A stretch of 64,000 bases of DNA, from positions 100,998,001-101,062,000 of the forward strand of contig OX597818.1 in assembly GCA_951406725.2 (NCBI GenBank), given 5' to 3'. Source of the stretch: Octopus vulgaris. Taxonomy: Eukaryota. The notes below the pieces were generated by a model. The model was not told where the DNA came from, did not search any database, and saw only the letters and a list, made by a program, of their open reading frames with translations. The position numbers and the translations under genes are program-made. Shown piece by piece: positions 961 to 59,172 of this stretch. The number at the start of each line of letters is the position of its first letter. Within the stretch, counting starts at the first letter, position 1.

Positions 961-1456
961 TAAGTAAAAGGGCAGGCAACATGTTGCTCTGCCGCATACC
1001 GAAAGAATTAGAAATAGCAGTCAGAGACTGTTTATTTCCATTTTCTACAAGTGGGGGCTCCATTACGACTATCCCGGTGGTGCGCATGGCAGAATTTTGG
1101 AGGGAAATTTTACGGAATCAATCGTCTACTTAGTTTTAGCCTATGCTCACTTTCCCCCCACAATTTGATGACGCCTGGTCGAAAGTGGAGGCTGGTGGCA
1201 TTTGATAAATCTAACGAAGATGGTGCTGAAGAAAGACATAAGGTAATTTCTCGCCTACGATCTAGAAACATGTTCACCATTAACGGTAAGGCATTGTTTT
1301 CATTTATTTACTCCTCCTATTTTGCGTATGTGTATTGCAGGGTTATGTCGTATATGGAGCCCCCACTTGTAGAAAATGGAAATAAACAGTCTCTGACTGC
1401 TATTTCTTATTCTTTCGGTATGCGGCAGAGCAACCTGTTGCCCGCCCTTTTACTTA
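961..1456 (+). mobile_element. Non-autonomous ~500-bp element with ~110-bp terminal inverted repeats and a central hammerhead motif, inserted in (TA)n
   Basis: 961-1069 (taagtaaaagggcaggcaac...gggggctccattacgac) is the near-exact reverse complement of 1347-1456. TA-rich sequence lies on both sides and there is no coding similarity. Confidence 0.85.
1220..1280 (+). ncRNA. Type I hammerhead ribozyme motif (stem II partly degenerate)
   Basis: ATGGTG-CTGAAGA-[stem II]-GAAA-CATG-TT-CACCAT: 6-bp stem I, CUGANGA core, palindromic stem III, GUU site. Confidence 0.75.
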
Positions 1457-12192: not shown

Positions 12193-12279
12193 AAGGGTGG
12201 AAAGGAACACACGAGTTGATATATATGAAAAAACAAGTCAAAAATAGAAAATGCTAAGATGATTTTATAGTGAATCTTT

Positions 12280-12317
12280 CAGTACCGGTTTCGGTCATTT
12301 TGAGACCTTTTCAACTG
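12280..12317 (-). ncRNA. Minimal type I hammerhead ribozyme, U3-A8 core variant
   Basis: Minus strand: CAG-TTGAAAA-GGTC tcaaaat GACC-GAAA-CCGG-TA-CTG. All three stems pair. Same strand as the PLE ORF, about 615 nt downstream. Confidence 0.8.
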
Positions 12318-12634
12318 TAACGATTAAATAATTAAAGTTAGAAAAATTATTTCTGTAGTAGTGTTCAGATATAAGTAGAATTCTGCCTTTTTCTGACTCC
12401 CTTGTTTGCACTTGTGTGTTCGAGGTCGTTTTGAGTTCTTGGTAGGATAGGTGAAGAATAATGAGGCTGATGTGGAGAGGGGGTGGGGAAATCTGGGAAT
12501 GCCTTAATGGTCGTATTTTGAATGGTCAGTGGCTGACAGTAGTCGCAGTTCAATTCAGGAATTGTTTATGGAATTTGCGTAGGCGTTATACTGAAAGACA
12601 TTAGTGACAAGGTTAAGGGGTGGAAGGTGGAGAA

Positions 12635-12805
12635 GTAGAAGAAGAAGAAGATGACGATGTTGATGATGATGATGATGAAGAAGAAGAAGAAGAAGAAGAA
12701 GAAGGGGAAGGAGAAGATGGTGGTGATGATGGTGGTGATGATGATGACGACGATGATGATGATAATGATGATGATGAAGAAGAAGAGGAAGAAGAAGAAG
12801 AAGAA
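12635..12805. repeat. Compound (GAA)n/(GAT)n repeat inside the PLE 3' UTR
   Basis: Direct reading. Confidence 0.9.
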
Positions 12806-12931
12806 AAAAACAGAGAAGGGAGAATATGAATGGGTGTAAGTATAGCTGTGATGGGGCTGATTAGTAATGGATTCTATGGAGTGTAATATTTGTGTGTGTA
12901 TATATTTCTTTTATTCTAAAGTTGAGGTATA

Positions 12932-14101
12932 TTAATTGTTTGTCGTAGACCCATTAAGAAGTGGCTTGTATTTTGTAATAAAGAGATTTTCTTTACTTAT
13001 TCGTTGTCTCGAGGTTGTATCGTCCCTAAATTGGTAGAGGGGGAAAATTCTGAAGTTTGGTGTTTTTTTGTTGGCGCAAGTATCTATGTGTTGGCTAAAA
13101 GCTATTTTTCTGTTTTGGGGAATTTTTATCTGGGATCTGTGCAGGGCCATTCGTTTACGCAAACCAATTTTTGTTTGGCCTATGTACTGCTCTTGACACC
13201 CGGAGCAGGTTAGTGAGTATATTAGGTTCTCCGAAGCACATGTGAAGTTGCTTTTCACTGTAAACCGTTGTCCCTGTTTGAAGGAGAACTCTGATCCCTC
13301 AATTAGATAATCGCATATCCCGCAATTGGGCCTTCCACATTTTTTTACTGTCGGCTTCTGTGTTGAAGAGTGAATTCGGGCTTGTGTAAGGAGACTTTTC
13401 ATGGATCTAGGCTGTCTTTTGCTTTTTATGATCGTGTGTGTTTGGAGGATTGTGTTCATTCTGTGGTCTTTTTTTAGGAGGGGTATGTTGTGGAGGATGG
13501 TGTCGAAGGCTTCGTTATTGAGAGGGTTGTGTGTGGAGATGTATGGTAAGGCTTTTGGTTGTAAGTTTTTCTTTGATTTGGGATGTCTCAGTTCCTTGAT
13601 GTTAAGTTGAAGGGCACGTTGAATGCACTTGTCAATAAGTGAAGGTGGATAGTTCCTGGTGATAAGGGTCTCTTTTAGTTCTTGTAGTCGTGTGTCTCTG
13701 GTGTTTGCGTTAGAGACTATAGTGCATATCCTTTTTGCTAGATTGAAGGGGATATTCATCCTGGTGTGTCTGGGGTGGCATGAATTGAATGGAAGATATT
13801 GCTTAGAGTCTGTAGGCTTATAGTATATGTCTGTTTCTATTATATTATTAGCTTTCTTAATGAGGATATCGAGGAAGGGGAGTTGTTGTTGGCTATATTC
13901 CATCGTGAATTGGATGTTTACGTCCAGTCCGTTTAAAATTTTCTGGAATTCTATGAGTTTTTCTATATTTTTATGCCAAAGGATGAAACAGTAATCTAGA
14001 TATCTCTTCCAGTTGTTTTCTATGTAGATGGAGAAAGGGCTGCCATATCTTTCTAGAACCTTACGATACAGACTGATCTCTAGGTATCCTATGACTAGGT
14101 T

Positions 14102-14107
<6 letters not shown>
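12932..14107 (-). CDS. PLE polyprotein fragment: RT motifs B'/C, thumb, Cys finger, GIY-YIG endonuclease
   Basis: The frame stays open upstream of the listed 323-aa ORF: YANLVIGYLE...WKRYLDYCFILW...IQFTMEYS..LPFLDI..DIYYKPTD..SCHP. It continues with CGRPNCGIC, NLIYSLTCSGCQEQYIGQT, LRKRMALH and ENLFITKYKPLLN. Confidence 0.88.
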
Positions 14108-14149
<42 letters not shown>

Positions 14150-14156
<7 letters not shown>

Positions 14157-14350
14157 TTGACCGCGTGCGTATCGTTGGCGATTTTCTTCCCTTCCTTGCA
14201 AACTTTCCTTTTTATATGGTACCGACGAAGTGCTCCGCTCGAAAAGTTAAAACCGCTTTGTTTCTTTACTTTCCTGAGGGTCCAATAACACTATACTTAT
14301 TCCACGTCCTCGCATTATGTTTTCTCTTTGTTTATGTTTGGATTAACTAT
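14150..14350 (+). repeat. Short interspersed repeat (probable PLE pLTR remnant) with a degenerate hammerhead-like motif at ~14217-14254
   Basis: CCGACGA-A-GTGC tcc GCTC-GAAA-AGTT; related to the 52502-52536 minus-strand motif. Confidence 0.5.
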
Positions 14351-19762: not shown

Positions 19763-21204
19763 CTTGATACGGTATTTATTGCCATAAATAAAATATTAAA
19801 CAAATTGAAATTACAACATTTGAATTAATTCTAAACGGCGAATTTAGAATTTAGGGCCTCATTGCCTTGCCTAATTCCCTTTCCTATAGCTTTGCTTATT
19901 TACGTAGTGTGTTGTGATTATATCATAGACCGTATATATTAGAAATCAGTTTGGATAAGTAAATATATAAACACCCTAATGGAAATGTCCTTAACTATAT
20001 CTCTGCCAGGAACGAAACATGTTTGAGAAAACGGATCTTACATTCCCATAGGCGATATAGTCTGGATATACTTTCAACAAAATCTATAGAAACCAGTACA
20101 GGGTAGCTATTTTATTTGATAAAGGCAAAAAAAGAAAAGAAATAAGGCTATCGATGCTATTTAATTGAAAAATAAATTCACATGATTCAAGTGATTCAAT
20201 TATGTGTCATAGTCGCATTCTTGTCACGTAATAACATTCAATTACTCTGATTGATAGGATGGTTAAATCCTGAGCTGAGCTGTCTGACGTTTTCAAGGAA
20301 TGTCAACATAATTTTCAAAATGCTCCCAAGCCACAGCACTTCATTTTAATTACTGTCATTCTTATATTTATACTCAGCAATCAAAGAAAACGCTTGTGCT
20401 GTAAAACACTCGACACAGTGATGACTTTAGAGAGAAATAAAGCCTGAAAATTTAAGCTTTTGGTATACAAGCTTAGTGAATAGCACCAACATCTAGTAAA
20501 CATACTTAAACTAATCATAGATTTGATTACGTCATCAAAGTTTCCTAAACGGAGTGAAAAACCGTAGGTAAAATATGGGCAAGCAATGCTTAAAAAAGGA
20601 GTATACTAGAATTTGCTCGATGAAAGTCACTTTTCTAAACATGAACGGTATTGTAGATGTATACACATAGACAAATGTACGTAAACGAAATATTTTTTAA
20701 GCAGCAAAATAATTGAAACTTAACAACACAGAACATATTTTTTATGTACTGGTTACTATTATAGTTTAGTTCTTACTTATTTCAGTCATTAGATTGCGGC
20801 CATGATGGGGAGCCACGTGGAAGGTTTTCGTCGAAGGAATCAATCATATTATATTTAAATCTTGATACAGTGGATTTATTTCACTAGAATTCTTATATGT
20901 TTACAAAGGCTAGACAGACATCTTCAACTAGCAGGCAATGCTACTCCAGACTGATGACCAGCAAACACTCAGAAACTCGTCTCCTGGTGCAGGCTTAGCT
21001 GGGTGGTGGTGCTTGTCTCCCCTTTGTAAACATAAGAGCACAGGAAATGTGTCAAGGCCGACAAGAAAGCGTTGATGCTTCCTAGAGCTAAATAGTAGTG
21101 GTGTAATTCCCTTCATGGGACTGTCACATTAAGTTGACAGTATACAACTACTCTATCGTACCACTACTGCTTATATCACTCTGAGATATTTAGAAATGTA
21201 ATAT

Positions 21205-21827: not shown

Positions 21828-22351
21828 TAGATAGATATATATAACAACGTACAGTATTTACCTGACGAGATGTAATGAAGTAACGCAAAGTTTTCAGAAC
21901 ATCAACATTTGCAGGTAGAGAATTTATTCAAGGAAATGAAAACTAGCAATGGAGCCGAAAGGAAGAAAAATCTATCTTGTGTCTACTGTAAAAAATAAAT
22001 AAGTAAAATTAAGAAATATTCAGAAAATGAAAATTGCTAAGGGCAAAAAAAGAGGAAATGAAATAATTCTACTGAAAAATATTTACTTTGGAAAACTGAA
22101 GGCATGCAATATACTTAGGTTAAAATAATAATGTAAGTTCCAAAATATTTGTTACTTCCCTGGTTAAATCAGATTCAACTTTTAAAACAATGCCTTGATG
22201 ATAGATCTAAACAAATGTTGCATTAAATATCTTACATATTACGATAATTTCTCTGCGATTAACATTGTTCAGTGTATGGAGCAACGGTTAATATCTACCT
22301 TCTTTGGAAATTCTACATATCGTATATTATATTTAAGAATATACATGCAGA

Positions 22352-22414
<63 letters not shown>

Positions 22415-22416
<2 letters not shown>

Positions 22417-22830
22417 AAAGGGCTTAGTAAAATAAATTACTTTGCCACATACTGAACTCATTAGAAATAGTAGCTAAAAAAACTTTTTAAAACTATTTCT
22501 AATACTTAAAGAAAATCTCTCATATAGTGTTTGCTCAATTCAACTCACGAAAGTATGGGGGTAAAGACAATGCCTTGATGATAAATCAAATGCAAAAGTT
22601 ATTTGAGAACGTACGTTTCTAGATTAGTCAACTCGACATTTCTATCATCAGCTCAGAACTCCTTGGTTTGGATTTGAAAACACTGAAAGTGGGAGCATAC
22701 CCTTTCGGCTTCTTATCGCTTCTGAAGATCTGCTCGAAACTAACAGTGCCAGCAAACTCAAAATATGCAAGCTGAATACTTGGTGAAATTGATTAATAAT
22801 TAATTAATTTTACCCTCAATTGTTGAAATT
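22415..22830 (-). mobile_element. Hammerhead-bearing non-coding repeat related to 961-1456, bounded by (TA)n
   Basis: The terminus aaaagggc...tgccacatactgaa...ttagaaatag and the motif acaatgcctt are shared with 961-1456; hammerhead at 22604-22655. Confidence 0.7.
22604..22655 (-). ncRNA. Type I hammerhead ribozyme with canonical core
   Basis: Minus strand: TGAG-CTGATGA-TAGA aat GTCG agt TGAC taa TCTA-GAAA-CGTACG-TT-CTCA. Confidence 0.85.
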
Positions 22831-22911
22831 ATATATATATATATATATATAGCGAGAGAGAGAGAGATAGAGAGATAGAGAGAGAGAGACAGAGAGAGAT
22901 TCATTGGGTGA

Positions 22912-24480: not shown

Positions 24481-24754
24481 AAAAAATATTAGATTTATTG
24501 CAATACCAAACAGATTTCCATACGTTTTGCTTAACAATTGTAGTTAATAAAGTTAAAGAAATATTTTGGTAGAGGTCGAATTTACAAGGGAAAATACAGA
24601 AAAAAATATGCTAAACGATGAAATGTTCTTACAAATTCCAACATTCGATTTTCAAAGAAATACAGAGATAGACAACAATTCAAGTTCGAATGCTCGACGA
24701 ATTCCATTATAAAAGTACAATGATATTGTTTTTTTTATTATTAACGAAGGCTCT

Positions 24755-25966
24755 CTCATCTTTTCTCCTTTGCTCCAAAAGAACCAAAATGGATCCAGAC
24801 ATGGGCGCTCAACGCTGAGCCAGATACTATGCCTACGCAGACTTAATGAAGAATCAAAAGCATTTAATCGCGATCTTGCAATGGTGTTTGTAGACTTTTC
24901 TAAAGCGTTCGACTCTGTAGATAGGTACAAGATGTTTGAAATCCTTAAGCTCTATGGGATACCAGACAAAATCATTTCTGCCATCAAGGTCCTCTACACA
25001 GATACGTCTTCAACTATCTTAACCCCTGACGGAGAAACATCATCGTTCTCAATCAAAGCCGTAATACTGCAGGGAGACACATTTCTTTTCATCATTGTCG
25101 TTGACTATGTGCTACGTATGTCAGTTGATACCATCTCTGGCAAGGGCTTTGAAATAAAATTAAGAAGAAGTTCCAGACACCCGGCTGAATACTTGACAGA
25201 CACTGACTTTGCTGGCGACATAGCTCTTATCAGTGATTCTCTCTGCAATGCCCAGTCACTTTTACAATCTCTCGAATAAGCCTCAAATTGTGTAGGTCTT
25301 TACCTCAATGAGGCCAAGACTGAATATATAAACAAGTGCCTGTCCAACAGTGATTGCATCATCCATACTCTCAACAATGCGCTCTTAAATATGTTTTCTG
25401 ATTACAAATATCTTTGGTCATACATATAATCATCTGGAAAAATTGTCTAACTAGAAAGGGTATGACCTGGTCAGCCTGTTATGAAATGCATAAGATCTGG
25501 TCTTCAAATCTAAGTAGAGACTTCAAACTTGAAATCTTCAAAGCCGCAGTCGAATCAATTCTACAATATGGCTCAGAAACCTGGACGTTATCAAAGAAGC
25601 TTGCGAAGTGGTTGGATGGAACCTACTCTAGCCTCCTTATGAGAGCTCAAAATCTCTCGTGGAGGCCTCATCCAACCAAAATGCAAATATATGGGAAACT
25701 ACCACTTGTATCATATCTTGTGAAAGGTAGGAGAGTCCACTTTGCTGCACATTGTTGTAGAGCTGAAAACGAGGCAATTTCTACTCTTCTCCTCTGGAAG
25801 CCATCTACTCGCAATACCAGAGGGCGCACACTCTCCTACCCTGATGTAATCTCCAGGGATACAGGCATCCAGCAACATGACCTCCGTAATGCCATGATGG
25901 ACCGTGAAGTCTGGCGTAGCATGGTAAATTCCATTGTCTCGACCACGGTCGAACAATGATGATGAT
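24755..25966 (+). mobile_element. 5'-truncated, decayed RTE-clade LINE (RT and C-terminus) with (TGA)n tail
   Basis: QNGSRHGRST..QI, FVDFSKAFDSV, ILQGD, TDFAGDIAL, LQYGSETWTL, RVHFAAHC; stops and frameshifts; ends gaacaatgatgatga. Confidence 0.9.
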
Positions 25967-30914: not shown

Positions 30915-31191
30915 AGAAAAGAAATGTGCAGTATATCGCTGTTTAAAATTTTTACTTGACCCTATATATATATGGTTATAGAATCGTGTAAAGTGTTGTG
31001 TACCGTGCATGTATAAATTTCGTTAGACTTTCTGCAACGGGTTTGTAGAGGGCAGGTGGCGCCAGGGCGACATTTACATGGTTGTGCATTGTGAGGATTA
31101 TTCTCAGGAATGGTGCAGCTAATACTGTCTGAAGAGAGACTAGATATAATGGTAGATTGGTGTATGTTATTAACATTACTATTACTATTAC

Positions 31192-31281
<90 letters not shown>

Positions 31282-31301
31282 TATCATTATTATAATTAAT
31301 A

Positions 31302-31375
<74 letters not shown>

Positions 31376-31684
31376 TCTACCGTTGCTTTTATCTATCCTG
31401 ACTCTAATGGTGGTGGATGCTGGGGTAGTAGTATTCTGGTTAGTGTTAGTAGGATTGACTGGTTTTTCGTTTTGGTCTAGAGTATGGGGTTCGTTATTGA
31501 AGTTATGTATATGTTGGGTGTTCGTGTATTCAGAGTTGATACAGTATAAGGTTATCTCGATTAGCGAATATGATGTCTCGTCCACTGAGAAAATATCCGA
31601 TAAGCAACGGCCAATATCACAACCGAGCGCTAATACTAGGTTCATGCAACATAAATATGAAATCATATCATAACGACATGCCAA
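30915..31684 (-). mobile_element. PLE fragment: thumb end, Asn-repeat linker, Cys motif and GIY-YIG start
   Basis: ISYLCCMN ... CKCRPGATCPLQTRC..NEIYTCTV...IYI, then a frameshift to YIGSSKNFKQRYTAH. Confidence 0.7.
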
Positions 31685-31849
31685 CCATCATAATCGCAAC
31701 AGACCACACATACACAATACTAGAATCCCGAGAGAACCCGGATTAAGACAAATTTAAACCCCACACGCACACATATAACACGAGGTCTAAAGCAAAAAAT
31801 GCTCCCAATAACGGGCCATACCCCCCCCCTAACTTTTAAACGTGTAGAT

Positions 31850-35599: not shown

Positions 35600-39990
<4,391 letters not shown>

Positions 39991-40017
39991 ATTATTATTA
40001 TTATTATTATTATTACT

Positions 40018-41632
40018 TTTTTTTTTTCTTCTTTCAAATTTTCTTCCATTTCTTGCCGAGAGTCTTCCCGACTCCTAGGGCAAAGAAACTCATAGTGTAT
40101 ATTGGTAGGCCATTAAACCAAACTCAGTAGTTCGTTCATATTTTTTTTTTTTTGTTAAATTAAAATACATGAGCAGCAACAGTTCTCACATCGACAATGC
40201 TCTTCTCAATACGTGTGATGTACCAGTTAAGACACTCTTTTGCACTTCTTGCAGGGATGGTAAGCCAGGGATCATTCTCATATAATTTTCGGTTCCCTTC
40301 TTGATCATTCCTAGTGCTCCTACGATCACTGGTATTGTAACCGCCTTGAGATGCCACATTTTCTCAATTTCAATGAGTAGGTCTTTATATTTTCTGAGCT
40401 TGTCAAACTCTTTCGCTGAGATATTATGATCACAGAGGATGCTCATGTCGATCAATAAGCAAACTTTATTGTTTTGGTCTTTCACAACAATATCTGGTTT
40501 ATTGGCCTTGATGGTTCGGTCTGTATGTACTGGAAAGTCCCACAGAATGGTTACATTTTCTCCTTCAGTTACAGCCTCAGGGTGGTGATTATACCACTTG
40601 TCGGCAGTTTTGATATTGTAATGCCGACTTATTAGCCAGTGGAGATATTGGCCAACTCTGTCATGTCTTAATTTATACTCCACTGGTGCTAAGACTTTAC
40701 ATCCAGAGATTAGGTGGTCCACTGTTTCAATCATGTCATTGCAGAATCGGCATTTTGGGTCTGCTCCATTTTTCATCACATTGGCCTGGTAGTTCCGGGT
40801 TAATAGGCTTTGGTCTTGAGCAGCCAGGATGAAACCTTCGCTCTCTGCTTTTAGCCCTGAGCTCCGCAGCCACTGATGGGTTTGCTTCTGGTCAACATCA
40901 GCTTGTTTGCTGCGGGTCACATATTTGCCGTGCAGAGGTTTCTCCTCCCACCTATCAGCCAATTGCTCGTGCGCTTTTTTCATTGCCATCATTTTCACCT
41001 TCTTTGCAACAATAGTTGCCGTACTTCCATCGGGTTGTTCAGTTTGGGTATCCTGCACGAGATCAATAGCAAATCTTTTGCTTTCCTTGATGATAGAATG
41101 AAGCTTCTTTCGTCTCTCGTGATTTTCCACGAGCTTTAGCATCCAGTCATTCGATATTTCGAGATATTTGGCCAGTCCAATTGTGGTTGTTTTGTAAGCT
41201 AGTTCAAATTGGATCAGGCCTCGACCTCCTTGGGCTCTGGGAAGGTAAAGGCGATCTACGTCTGCCTTTGGGTGGTGCATCCTATTACAACTCAGCAGCT
41301 TGCGTATTTTTCTATCTATATTCTTTACTACACTCATATTCCAGTTCAACACATTGTAGCTATAAGTAACAACTGGAACTGCTAAGGAATTTATAGCTAA
41401 CACCTTGTTACGTGCATTTAGTTCAGATTTCAGGACTGCACGAACTCTCCTATAACATTCCTTCCTGATTTTCTCTTTCATGCTTGCATGCTGAATACCA
41501 GAGCCTTCATTTATCCCTAAATATTTGTATGTTTGTTCTTGCTCAAGCTCTCTTATGACTGTGTCAACATCTAACACGACTGAATTTGTGGTCTTGACTG
41601 TGTCAACATCTAACACGACTGAATTTGTGGTC

Positions 41633-41633
<1 letters not shown>
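40018..41633 (-). mobile_element. 5'-truncated R4/Dong element, third subfamily
   Basis: Uninterrupted 476-aa frame; (TAA)n at 39961-40016 and from 41636. Confidence 0.93.
40186..41616 (-). CDS. R4/Dong ORF C-terminal half (RT thumb, CCHC, restriction-like endonuclease)
   Basis: YKYLG, HPKADVDRLYLPRAQGGRGL, CRFCNDMIETVDHLISGC, RHD, KPDIVV..LIDM..KLRKYKDL. Confidence 0.88.
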   Translation of the reverse strand: MLDVDTVKTTNSVVLDVDTVIRELEQEQTYKYLGINEGSGIQHASMKEKIRKECYRRVRAVLKSELNARNKVLAINSLAVPVVTYSYNVLNWNMSVVKNIDRKIRKLLSCNRMHHPKADVDRLYLPRAQGGRGLIQFELAYKTTTIGLAKYLEISNDWMLKLVENHERRKKLHSIIKESKRFAIDLVQDTQTEQPDGSTATIVAKKVKMMAMKKAHEQLADRWEEKPLHGKYVTRSKQADVDQKQTHQWLRSSGLKAESEGFILAAQDQSLLTRNYQANVMKNGADPKCRFCNDMIETVDHLISGCKVLAPVEYKLRHDRVGQYLHWLISRHYNIKTADKWYNHHPEAVTEGENVTILWDFPVHTDRTIKANKPDIVVKDQNNKVCLLIDMSILCDHNISAKEFDKLRKYKDLLIEIEKMWHLKAVTIPVIVGALGMIKKGTENYMRMIPGLPSLQEVQKSVLTGTSHVLRRALSM

Positions 41634-41635
<2 letters not shown>

Positions 41636-45029: not shown

Positions 45030-45556
45030 TATAGATGGAAGGCGTTCAATGGCATAAGGTATGTGCTCAAGGGAAGGTTGGACAGGACCACCCACGCCAA
45101 CCTCATTAACAGTGCAGTTCTACCTGCAATGTTATATGGTAGTGAAACATGGGCTACCATAAAAGACAGAAGAGCAAAGACTAGTAACGGCTCGAAGAGC
45201 CATGGAAAGGTCAATGCTTGGTATCTCGTTGAGAGAGCAAATAAGTAGCGAGATCATCAGAAAGAAGTCCGGCGTGAGAGATGTCATCGCAGAGTATACA
45301 CGCAGCAAGTATAGATGGGCTGGACACGTCGCCCGGCTCACAGATAGTCAGTGGACACACGCACTTGCCGAGTGGTACCCGTGTGAGCGGAAAAGATCAC
45401 CCGGAAGACCTCCACGACGGTGGAATTACGATTTCGGGAGGACGATTGGGATCCCGTGGATGAGAAAGGAGTGGACAGCGTGGAGTGGACAGCGTGCTGT
45501 GACCAGCGCTGTCAAATGGACGCCAGAAGGACTGGTCTCTCAAGGTGAAGGTGAAG

Positions 45557-45560
<4 letters not shown>
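45030..45560 (+). mobile_element. RTE-clade LINE 3' fragment with (GAAGGT)n tail
   Basis: [42 protein letters not shown]; tail aaggtgaaggtgaaggtga. Confidence 0.9.
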
Positions 45561-45595
<35 letters not shown>

Positions 45596-46394
45596 GTTTA
45601 TTCTTTTATTCTTTTTTTTTCAGTTTATTGGCTGCGGTCATGTTGGAGAGCAACTTTAAATTGTATTAGTGAATGTTGAAAACACTTCACTTAGAATGTT
45701 AGCGTGTTTGGTTCTATCGATATCATTTCTAATACATTATACAACCACTCAGGCACTCGCATGTTATTTAAAATGACAGTTTTCATCATTAAATATGTTT
45801 AATTTAATGTCTGCCATGTTTGAGATTTTAAAATTAATTTAATATATTAAAATTTTATTCCCTTATTTTAGCGAATCGTTTTCCTTTCCTTTTAAAATTT
45901 CCCAAACTGAAAGGACAATTTCTGTGCATTACGCATTATGTGCAGGCGCCATTAATTGATCCATTTTTATCCAAATATATTATTTTATATATATTATGCT
46001 CATAAATCTGAAGGATTCGTCAGATGTTGGAAAGAAATTCGTTTGGATATTTCACTTCAGGTGGCTTTCCCATCTATCCGCAATATCAATTAATCTATTA
46101 TTTCTCTGTGTAATATTGTGGCTTGACTTGTCGATGACCTGATAACAATTAGCGAACGATAATATTAATTACGTATTGCGAAAGGCTAACAATTTCAGTG
46201 GGGGTGTTAATTGGATAGTGTCGACCTCAGTGCAAATCTGGTACTTAATTTAGGGGTCCAGAGAATATGAAAAGCAAAGTCGACCTCGGTGGTAATCGAA
46301 CTTTGCCAGGTTGAATTGTAGTGTCAACTTATTACCTTCTCACAAATTGCTGGTTTTATTCCAAAACTTTAAATCAATATTAATTGTCGATTAT

Positions 46395-56129: not shown

Positions 56130-56647
56130 TCACGCTGGTGAGACCCATATTGGAGTATGGGATTGAAGCCTCTCTCCTTATCTCCTCAAAGACATACAGC
56201 ACCTCGAAAGAGTCCAGAGGCTGGCTACCCGCATGGTTCATGGTCTCAAAAATTTGTTCTACGAAGAAAGGCTGAGGACTTTCGACCTTTATTCTCTTGA
56301 AAAACGCCGCCGCCGTGGTGATCTCATTCTCGCCCACAACATCATAAGCGGGAAGTGTAACCTCTCGAAAGAGCTGTTCTTCACTCCTGCTCCGGAGCGT
56401 CGGCTGCGGGGTCATTCCGAAAAGCTCTACCTGCGACGATTTCATCTCAATCGAAGGAGAGGAGCTTTCTCCGTCCGGGTTGCGGATCCGTGGAACAAGC
56501 TGCCAGACGAGATGGTGAAGATGCCGACGACCGCTTTGTTCAAAGCCTCCCTGGACCTCAAGTGGCCTGAACTCTTTACATGAACACCACCCTGTACTTA
56601 ACTCCATGTCCCCCTACATGGCCTTGCTATTTTCTTTTGAGCCAAAT

Positions 56648-58259: not shown

Positions 58260-58314
58260 TTTTATTGGCTAAACTGGCAAGATGACTATTCCGAACACTA
58301 TATACAACTATAAT

Positions 58315-58630
58315 CCGGATGTCACCTGATGTTTGTGACAGAACAGAGGATCTCCTCGGCAGGATCAATGACTGCAACAACAGTTGTGACCTGACAGGAT
58401 GTATGATGGGTAGCATGGATGTGGTATCCCTATACCCATTGATCGACGTAGATTTTGCGGTGGAGAAGTGCGTGGAGATGATCAACGGGAGCCAGGTGGA
58501 GTTCCGTAATGTCAACACAGAGGAACTGGGCCTCCTACTTAGACTGACATGTAACAATGGATACCTTGATAAACATAATCTTAGTAGTTTCTGCCCCAGT
58601 AGATGTTTAAGAGGTAGACCACCCACAATT
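58315..58630 (+). mobile_element. PLE reverse-transcriptase fragment (motif A region)
   Basis: GSMDVVSLYPLID resembles the PLE SxDVxSLYPxI motif. Confidence 0.7.
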
Positions 58631-59172
58631 ATTATTGCCACCATTACCACTATCATTATTACCACTACTACTATTATTACTATTACCACCACAACTATCA
58701 CAACTACCATTATTACTACTTCAACTGTTACCACCACCACTACTACTACCACTATTATTGTTATTACCGTTATTCCTACCATTGCCATTATTGCTACTTC
58801 ATTCTGATTATCGCTTGTGAATATTTTTATTGTTCCTGTTTCTGGTGTATGTGTTGTTCATATTAGTGTTGGGTTTTATGCCTGTCTGTTGGTCCCTGTC
58901 ATTCCCTCTGTTGTAGTTGTTATTTTTGTTCCTATGAGTATTGTTATATGTTTCAAGTCTACTGACTCCCTGTCCAAGGATTCTGTTGCATTCAACTTTA
59001 TTTTCCATCGTATATAGACTGATAGAGAAATTGATATTAATGTTTCGCATGGGTATGAAGATAGTGCTAAACAGTCGTTAGAACAGAATTAATTTATGCT
59101 TTACATTAAGGGAGTATATAGCGAGCAATAAGTTAATGAATGCTAAAGAACATGAGTTAGCTCATTGCCTAT

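Follow-up and report, generated by a model that had tools for sequence, protein, structure and literature searches.

An abundant non-coding repeat with a predicted hammerhead motif, and a copy of it in Octopus vulgaris with MITE-like inverted arms

The locus and its neighbors

The window, meaning the whole 64,000-nucleotide stretch of Octopus vulgaris DNA (contig OX597818.1) that was analyzed, consists of AT-rich, animal-type DNA with many microsatellites and retroelement fragments. Near its start, a short element at positions 961–1456 lies inside TA tracts, with TA-rich sequence on both sides. The left insertion site is a (TA)n tract at 942–960, which has no strand of its own; a target-site duplication would be indistinguishable within such repeats. 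The left end of the element (961–1069) matches the reverse complement of its right end (1347–1456) in 106 of 110 columns (E=8e-47), and the near-perfect inverted arms of ~110 bp in TA-rich flanks that an earlier, sequence-only reading of this DNA had described are therefore real. The three mismatches between them are at 974/1443, 982/1435 and 1009/1408, and a single-nucleotide bulge lies at 1063/1353. Folding of 950–1470 yields a z score of −21.9 (100 shuffles). An assembly artefact as the source of the arms was ruled out because they differ at three sites plus the bulge, and because the states at these sites match variants of the wider family.

The right arm (1347–1456, + strand) is the 3′ region of the element. 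It ends in CCCTTTTA followed by TA, which constitutes a first 3′ end. Beyond it, on the right side only, is an extension or “tail” (1457–1585, + strand) with a second 3′ end, where a similar CCCTTTTA motif precedes (TA)n. CCCT ahead of TA tracts is not enriched across the window (5/136 vs. a 1.9% background), and homology between the tail and the arm is unproven (371/1000 shuffles). An open reading frame (ORF) for reverse transcriptase (RT) and GIY-YIG endonuclease is absent from 961–1585, which rules out an autonomous Penelope-like element (PLE) at this position.

PLE-like sequence does occur elsewhere in the window. A truncated element at 12195–14290 (− strand) contains an RT/GIY-YIG ORF (12932–14290) that scores 0.96 in the Atlas comparison to HTH_animal/GIY-YIG/RVT_1 clusters, together with a Cys linker resembling that of Neptune, a 3′ UTR, its own 3′ hammerhead motif (12314, − strand), and a CCCT end that joins (TA)n. 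This is a candidate for the kind of helper that the 961–1456 element might use. Its hammerhead motif has a U3 and A8 core and a palindromic stem III, U3–A8 being a compensatory form known in the literature. The 3′ end of this element, the one ORF-bearing PLE end compared, shows no DNA homology to the 961–1456 element (424/1000 shuffles). Further fragments, at 30962–31687 (− strand) and 58286–58807 (+ strand), resemble PLE endonuclease and RT by eye; Pfam returned no match for any of the three PLE-like ORF fragments in the window. Decayed RT fragments of non-LTR retrotransposons are located at 24713–25959, 35649–41634, 45163–45669 and 56167–56583.

A predicted hammerhead and a homologous element

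Between the arms, at 1220–1280 (+ strand), is a type I hammerhead motif with a palindromic stem III. Stem I (1220–1225/1275–1280) is Watson-Crick paired at 6/6 positions, and the core boxes CUGAAGA (1226–1232) and GAAA (1265–1268) are accompanied by the palindrome ACAUGU (1268–1273) and a GUU site. Position H17 is U1274, and cleavage is therefore predicted after 1274. Core, stems and H17 all agree with the sequence-only reading, which had placed a hammerhead with this same cleavage site between the arms. Stem II (1233–1264) is made up of 3 + 4 pairs around an internal loop, and the core is of the PLE type, with palindromic 15.2–16.2 and loop 3. The base of helix II departs from that type. According to PMC4209133, a G10.1–C11.1 pair is highly conserved among PLE hammerheads; it is absent here, where A1233·A1264 occupies the position.

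A strict descriptor, for which stem I had to reach 3 bp and stem III had to be palindromic in addition to the presence of stem II and the core, matched three sites in the window (1226+, 12314− and 22651−), as compared to 0.05 per window in 40 block shuffles. With a 6-bp stem I, one match was retained in the window and none occurred in the shuffles. These figures are somewhat flattering because the descriptor was devised after the motif was seen. The search with hammerhead models that the sequence-only reading had proposed gave a negative result: Rfam reported no hammerhead at gathering score in the whole window, nor at up to E=10 in 900–1520, where nine weak matches were unrelated. Two pattern scans of metagenomes produced 0 and 0 matches, and 35 loci from a viral scan, none of them related by BLASTN at E≤0.01, were taken as chance.

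Several further motifs were observed. Just downstream of the hammerhead, AAGGCATTGT (1291–1301, + strand) is common to this element and the homologue described below; in this element it is predicted to pair with GAAAC and the cut site (1265–1274) and could block the ribozyme. A possible decayed antisense hammerhead is located at 1130–1165 (− strand), where variants in a deep contig from one sequencing run (X2, see below) complete the first core box further and the GAAA side is still broken. At 20945–20995 (+ strand), the series CTGATGA...GAAAC...GTC, whose stem I contains a bulge, likewise resembles a decayed hammerhead.

The ribozyme domain would be closed by a stem of its own. A diverged, G·U-rich strand at 1070–1105 (+ strand) is the predicted partner of 1311–1346 in the plus-strand RNA, with 23 Watson-Crick pairs, six G·U, one A·C and four other oppositions. 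The duplex is calculated at −36.2 kcal/mol for the plus strand vs. −16.8 for the minus strand. Fold z scores show a similar strand difference, both for 1058–1360 (−5.0 vs. −1.0) and for 1070–1346, which excludes the 12-bp stem at the base of the arms (−2.2 vs. +0.9). As a DNA alignment, the two strands are not significantly alike (468/1000 shuffles), and on the same count it is unproven that 1070–1190 derives from an old inversion of the 3′ part that carried a ribozyme. The 6:1 asymmetry of G·U over A·C (5:1 with the majority A1333) is likewise not significant.

A homologous, non-coding element is found at 22415–22831 (− strand). Complete from TA to TA and about 415 bp long, it is inserted between two TA tracts and stops where the right arm of the 961–1456 element stops. 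Collinearity with that element spans 22415–22720, and the last 250 bp of the insert correspond to 1207–1452, with a local alignment score of 73 as compared to a shuffle mean of 24 and maximum of 39 (n=500). An intact hammerhead motif (22651) is located at the corresponding place, with U-A at the base of stem II; stems I, II and III differ in sequence from those at 1220–1280, and all of them pair. This makes the homologue the best evidence that the motif is kept by selection in the group. Terminal inverted repeats beyond chance were not detected in the homologue (270/1000 shuffles), and homology between its 5′ part and that of the 961–1456 element is unproven (575/1000 shuffles). In that 5′ part, at about 22720–22745 of the plus strand, a CTGAAGA...GAAAC remnant hints that ribozyme motifs exist on either strand, although the homology tests for this part were not significant. 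The segment that follows the ribozyme in the homologue recurs briefly at 22184–22219 (− strand), with 84% identity along 37 bp.

Family boundaries and the origin of the left arm

Relatives of the element were sought in the contigs of 24 listed sequencing runs, all of samples other than the window's own. Part of 961–1456 was present in 20 of these (nine studies, four organism labels), the best share being 0.44 of its sequence words. Four runs (X1, X2, X4 and X12) were placed on 1030–1583 at 80% likeness, yielding 454, 277, 10 and 259 pieces, respectively; X4 may be an RNA run, and the other three are DNA-like. The records listed covered 40 of the 87 rows for variants and 12 of the 17 for indels, together with 24 of the 161 loose ends and 32 of the 1,020 pieces. 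Contigs drop rare variants, and their summed depth was not taken as copy number.

Coverage ends abruptly within the left arm. At 1063, depth was 1363 in X1, 2032 in X2 and 617 in X12, whereas at 1057 it was 107 in X1 (a single contig) and 0 in the other two; X4 has no coverage ahead of 1068. Position 1057 is covered by 1/454, 0/277, 0/10 and 0/259 pieces in X1, X2, X4 and X12 (1/1,000 overall). Judging from the k=31 assembly, if both arms were part of every copy, interior contigs would carry ~30 bases of arm and cover 1057. Joints and pieces begin at 1058 instead, and 1058–1069 is the only portion of the left arm common to the family.

At the other end, many relatives continue past 1456 to about 1578–1585; two contigs from X4 stop at 1457–1460. 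Diverged contigs link the right arm to the tail in X1 (1429–1578), X12 (1394–1491) and X2 (1361–1487 and 1378–1476), which marks the tail as the family's own. Since contigs of these three runs, which represent three organisms, bridge into 1457–1578, the element frequently extends beyond its right arm. The proposal that two ~110-bp arms recur as fixed ends thus fails on both sides: 1057 is nearly uncovered, and the family runs past the right arm to ~1580. It is quite improbable that the two-armed rod at 961–1456 (or 961–1585) is nevertheless a family with fixed ends that was amplified in the window's species. The runs may represent other species or individuals, given the best share of 0.44, and the X1 contig that reaches 1057 (depth 107) spans 1030–1063 with two indels, so that a second two-armed copy may exist. 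However, that lone contig has the right-arm A at 1063 and may be a right arm misplaced on the left, in addition to which the coverage of 1057 and the continuation beyond 1456 both speak against such a family.

Head-to-tail joints were observed in three of the four runs. In X2 and X12, position 1580 is joined to 1058 across 26 letters, and in X4, 1557 is joined to 1082 across ~172 letters (from record coordinates). Two ribozymes on one piece were not seen among the pieces listed (32/1,020). Strand-change joints occur elsewhere, at 1152/1532 and 1163/1452, in one contig each and with ambiguous orientation. The unit length is thus ~550 bp (1058–1580 plus the 26-nt linker), and the existence of an abundant, non-coding family with a unit of about 1058–1585 is shown by these contigs. 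The sequence-only reading had allowed for a one-off inverted PLE-type insertion in place of a family; the arms are indeed not family ends, but the core belongs to a real and abundant family.

The strongest alternative, although itself unlikely, is that this unit is simply the 5′-truncated 3′ end (pLTR or 3′ UTR) of an autonomous PLE whose full copies carry the ORF upstream. The arm would then be an ordinary inverted truncated copy, with no separate non-autonomous family. According to PMC8969392 and PMC4209133, PLE copies are as a rule truncated at the 5′ end, and the majority of PLE hammerheads in genomes are not part of a full element. PLE ORF fragments are present in the window, and the sequence upstream of 1058 in most copies is not visible among the loose ends listed (24/161). 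Against this, two independent joints return the 3′ end to the start of the unit within 26 and ~172 letters, and the homologue, at about 415 bp, runs complete from one TA tract to the other. In addition, no GIY-YIG C-terminus is evident in 1070–1350 in any of six frames, and the element's 151-aa stop-to-stop frame has no Pfam match.

The contigs also bear on the ribozyme. No variants occur in the core (1226–1232 and 1265–1274) among the rows listed (40/87). The A1233·A1264 mismatch looks family-wide rather than a decay of this copy, since A1233T does not appear among those same rows and an X1 contig with a compensatory change in distal stem II also has A. At the position of U1244, C accounts for 78–100% of depth in all four runs; this copy therefore traded one Watson-Crick pair for a wobble. 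The suggestion that stem II is partly decayed in this copy accordingly applies to U1244, but not to the mismatch at its base. Covariation of the stems, also raised in the sequence-only reading, was seen once in distal stem II (the X1 contig) but not in stem I: changes in its 5′ strand at 1222 and 1224 make up 72–91% of depth in three runs, and partner changes at 1276 or 1278 are absent from the variant rows listed. Either stem I is broken, or these contigs belong to a sister family, or the partner changes are in rows other than the 40 of 87. In its full context, stem I pairs with P=0.11, and the ribozyme fold costs only 0.9 kcal/mol. Cleavage by the predicted ribozyme is doubtful because stem II starts with an A·A opposition and because stem I shows no covariation among the rows listed. 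Of note is that PMC4209133 describes weak cleavage of PLE hammerheads, as dimers, and that insertion by a PLE in vitro was independent of hammerhead cleavage (PMC11167929). At a locus common to X2 and X12, a loose end behind 1229 continues from the first core box into a much shorter stem II and then CCCTTTT and a TA end; the repeat thus also exists in a version with a shorter hammerhead.

The bulge at 1063 identifies where the left arm was acquired. The extra A of the right arm is carried by 107/1363 of the depth at 1063 in X1, 0/2032 in X2 and 0/617 in X12. Since most contigs lack it, as does this left arm, 1058–1069 (+ strand) is the family's own 5′ stem strand and a short partner of 1347–1359, and the bulge is the native state. 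The copied part is therefore 961–1057 (− strand), with a junction inside the six bases 1058–1063, that is, within a 6-nt microhomology and at the likely template-switch site. Because the family begins at 1058, extends past the right arm and joins head-to-tail, 961–1057 is a recent inverted copy of 1360–1456 (three mismatches in 97 bp) that lies outside the usual unit and is attached to the 12-bp stem native to the family. At 1408 (98–100% of depth) and 1443 (93–100%), the left arm has the family's majority base, and the right arm has it at 1435, as suggested by an X2 loose end (24 of 161 listed). A minority C at 1393/1024 is common to both arms, T being found at 60–86% in three DNA-like runs. 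These states fit a single template that was copied twice and then acquired three independent mutations.

The reading that we prefer, with a probability of about 0.55, is that an abundant hammerhead repeat was likely inserted into TA repeats by a Penelope-like RT and endonuclease, and that the long left arm likely arose by fold-back copying in this copy. A PLE protein would nick (TA)n and reverse-transcribe the element RNA from either 3′ end (about 1460 or about 1585). On reaching 1058–1063, the new cDNA end would fold back on its own copy of 1354–1359, or switch template there, so that 1360–1456 would be copied a second time to yield the 97-bp inverted arm, leaving 1457–1585 as a one-sided tail. 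The ribozyme would cleave transcripts of tandem units, although its activity would probably be weak and require a dimer, and the copy at 1220–1280 may be inactive. We infer the fold-back or template switch at the native stem from the one copy at this locus. The retro step is taken from PLE precedent because fold-back at the DNA level would leave an identical junction.

That identical junction, together with the near-perfect terminal arms and the TA on both sides of 961–1456, could also be accommodated by a DNA transposon (MITE), or by replication template switching or conversion that made the arms, with the hammerhead as a passenger. This is the least probable of the alternatives. The family does not terminate in these arms, a homologue without terminal inverted repeats has retained the hammerhead while its stem sequences changed, and the native stem is predicted on the plus RNA strand only. 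Most likely, the long arms are a copy-level inversion of the kind known from PLEs.

Comparison with known systems

PLE hammerheads, inverted pLTRs, tails and retrozymes have all been published. The novelty is modest and consists of an apparently undescribed family whose stem II is atypical and whose tail is long, together with a junction hinting at how inversion was primed. No description of the hammerhead family was found in the literature; it may already be catalogued in Repbase or Dfam, which lie outside the literature searched, and the supplements to PMC8557442 and PMC4209133 (PLE consensus sequences and hammerhead families) could include it. The formation of PLE inverted structures is named as an open question in PMC8557442, and a junction on a native RNA stem with 6-nt microhomology suggests an answer. 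A broader view is speculative and, on balance, unlikely. It posits a superfamily of about 400–550-nt non-coding hammerhead RNAs, above the known size of animal retrozymes and non-canonical at the base of stem II, that ride on PLE machinery; their own closing stem would prime fold-back synthesis, which would explain PLE inverted repeats and make a self-amplifying MITE look-alike.

Palindromic stem III and non-autonomous PLE derivatives are described in several sources (PMC8557442, PMC11167929, bioRxiv 10.64898/2026.07.22.740005, PMC7229834, PMC4209133, PMC6765202 and PMC8969392). The closest resemblance is to the EN+ PLEs (Penelope/Poseidon, Neptune and Hydra) and their pLTRs, which share with the element a type I hammerhead near the 3′ end, a short palindromic stem III, an inverted truncated 5′ copy, an extension at one end only, head-to-tail order and a TA-rich target. 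Inverted 5′-truncated copies, one-sided tails and microsatellite targets are given as PLE traits in PMC8557442, and the inverted copy (961–1057) and the extension (1457–1585, on the right only) are both found here. PMC11167929 defines the PLE tail by two RT start sites. In contrast to EN+ PLEs, the element has no RT/GIY-YIG ORF, its tail is ~125 bp rather than the published 30–40 bp, it lacks G10.1–C11.1 and has a stem II with a 3 + 4 bp helix and internal loop, and it shows no homology to the one ORF-bearing PLE end compared.

Metazoan non-LTR retrozymes, as presented by Cervera and de la Pena (2020) and in the preprint of Li et al. (2026), are also non-coding and contain a type I hammerhead. 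Their RNA is self-paired, their units occur both joined head-to-tail and as dispersed monomers, and mobilization by PLEs has been proposed for them. According to PMC7229834, an axolotl retrozyme tolerates U·U as the basal opposition of helix II. However, the same source gives retrozyme monomers of about 170–400 nt, as compared to ~550 bp here, and the present element carries a PLE-type inverted copy and tail. Filing it as a retrozyme was thus not adopted, in view of its size and the lack of tandem ribozymes among the pieces listed. Of the sequence-only description of a non-coding, ribozyme-bearing, TA-associated, retrozyme-like PLE derivative, all but the retrozyme assignment stands.

Non-autonomous Chlamys PLEs such as MRC1 are also PLE derivatives, and MRC1 was misfiled under another class of TE on account of its terminal repeats, as recounted in PMC8557442. 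Unlike the present element, they are green algal, most lack canonical hammerheads, and their 3′ ends generally match autonomous families. Finally, this one copy shares with MITEs its short length, lack of coding sequence, long terminal inverted repeats and TA flanks, and annotation based on TIRs would misfile such copies as DNA MITEs. It is not filed as a MITE, given that the family does not end in these arms and possesses a motif at the RNA level; the sequence-only reading likewise regarded the element as a MITE in appearance only. By analogy, it would act like the terminal repeat of a PLE, mobile in the absence of the ORF.
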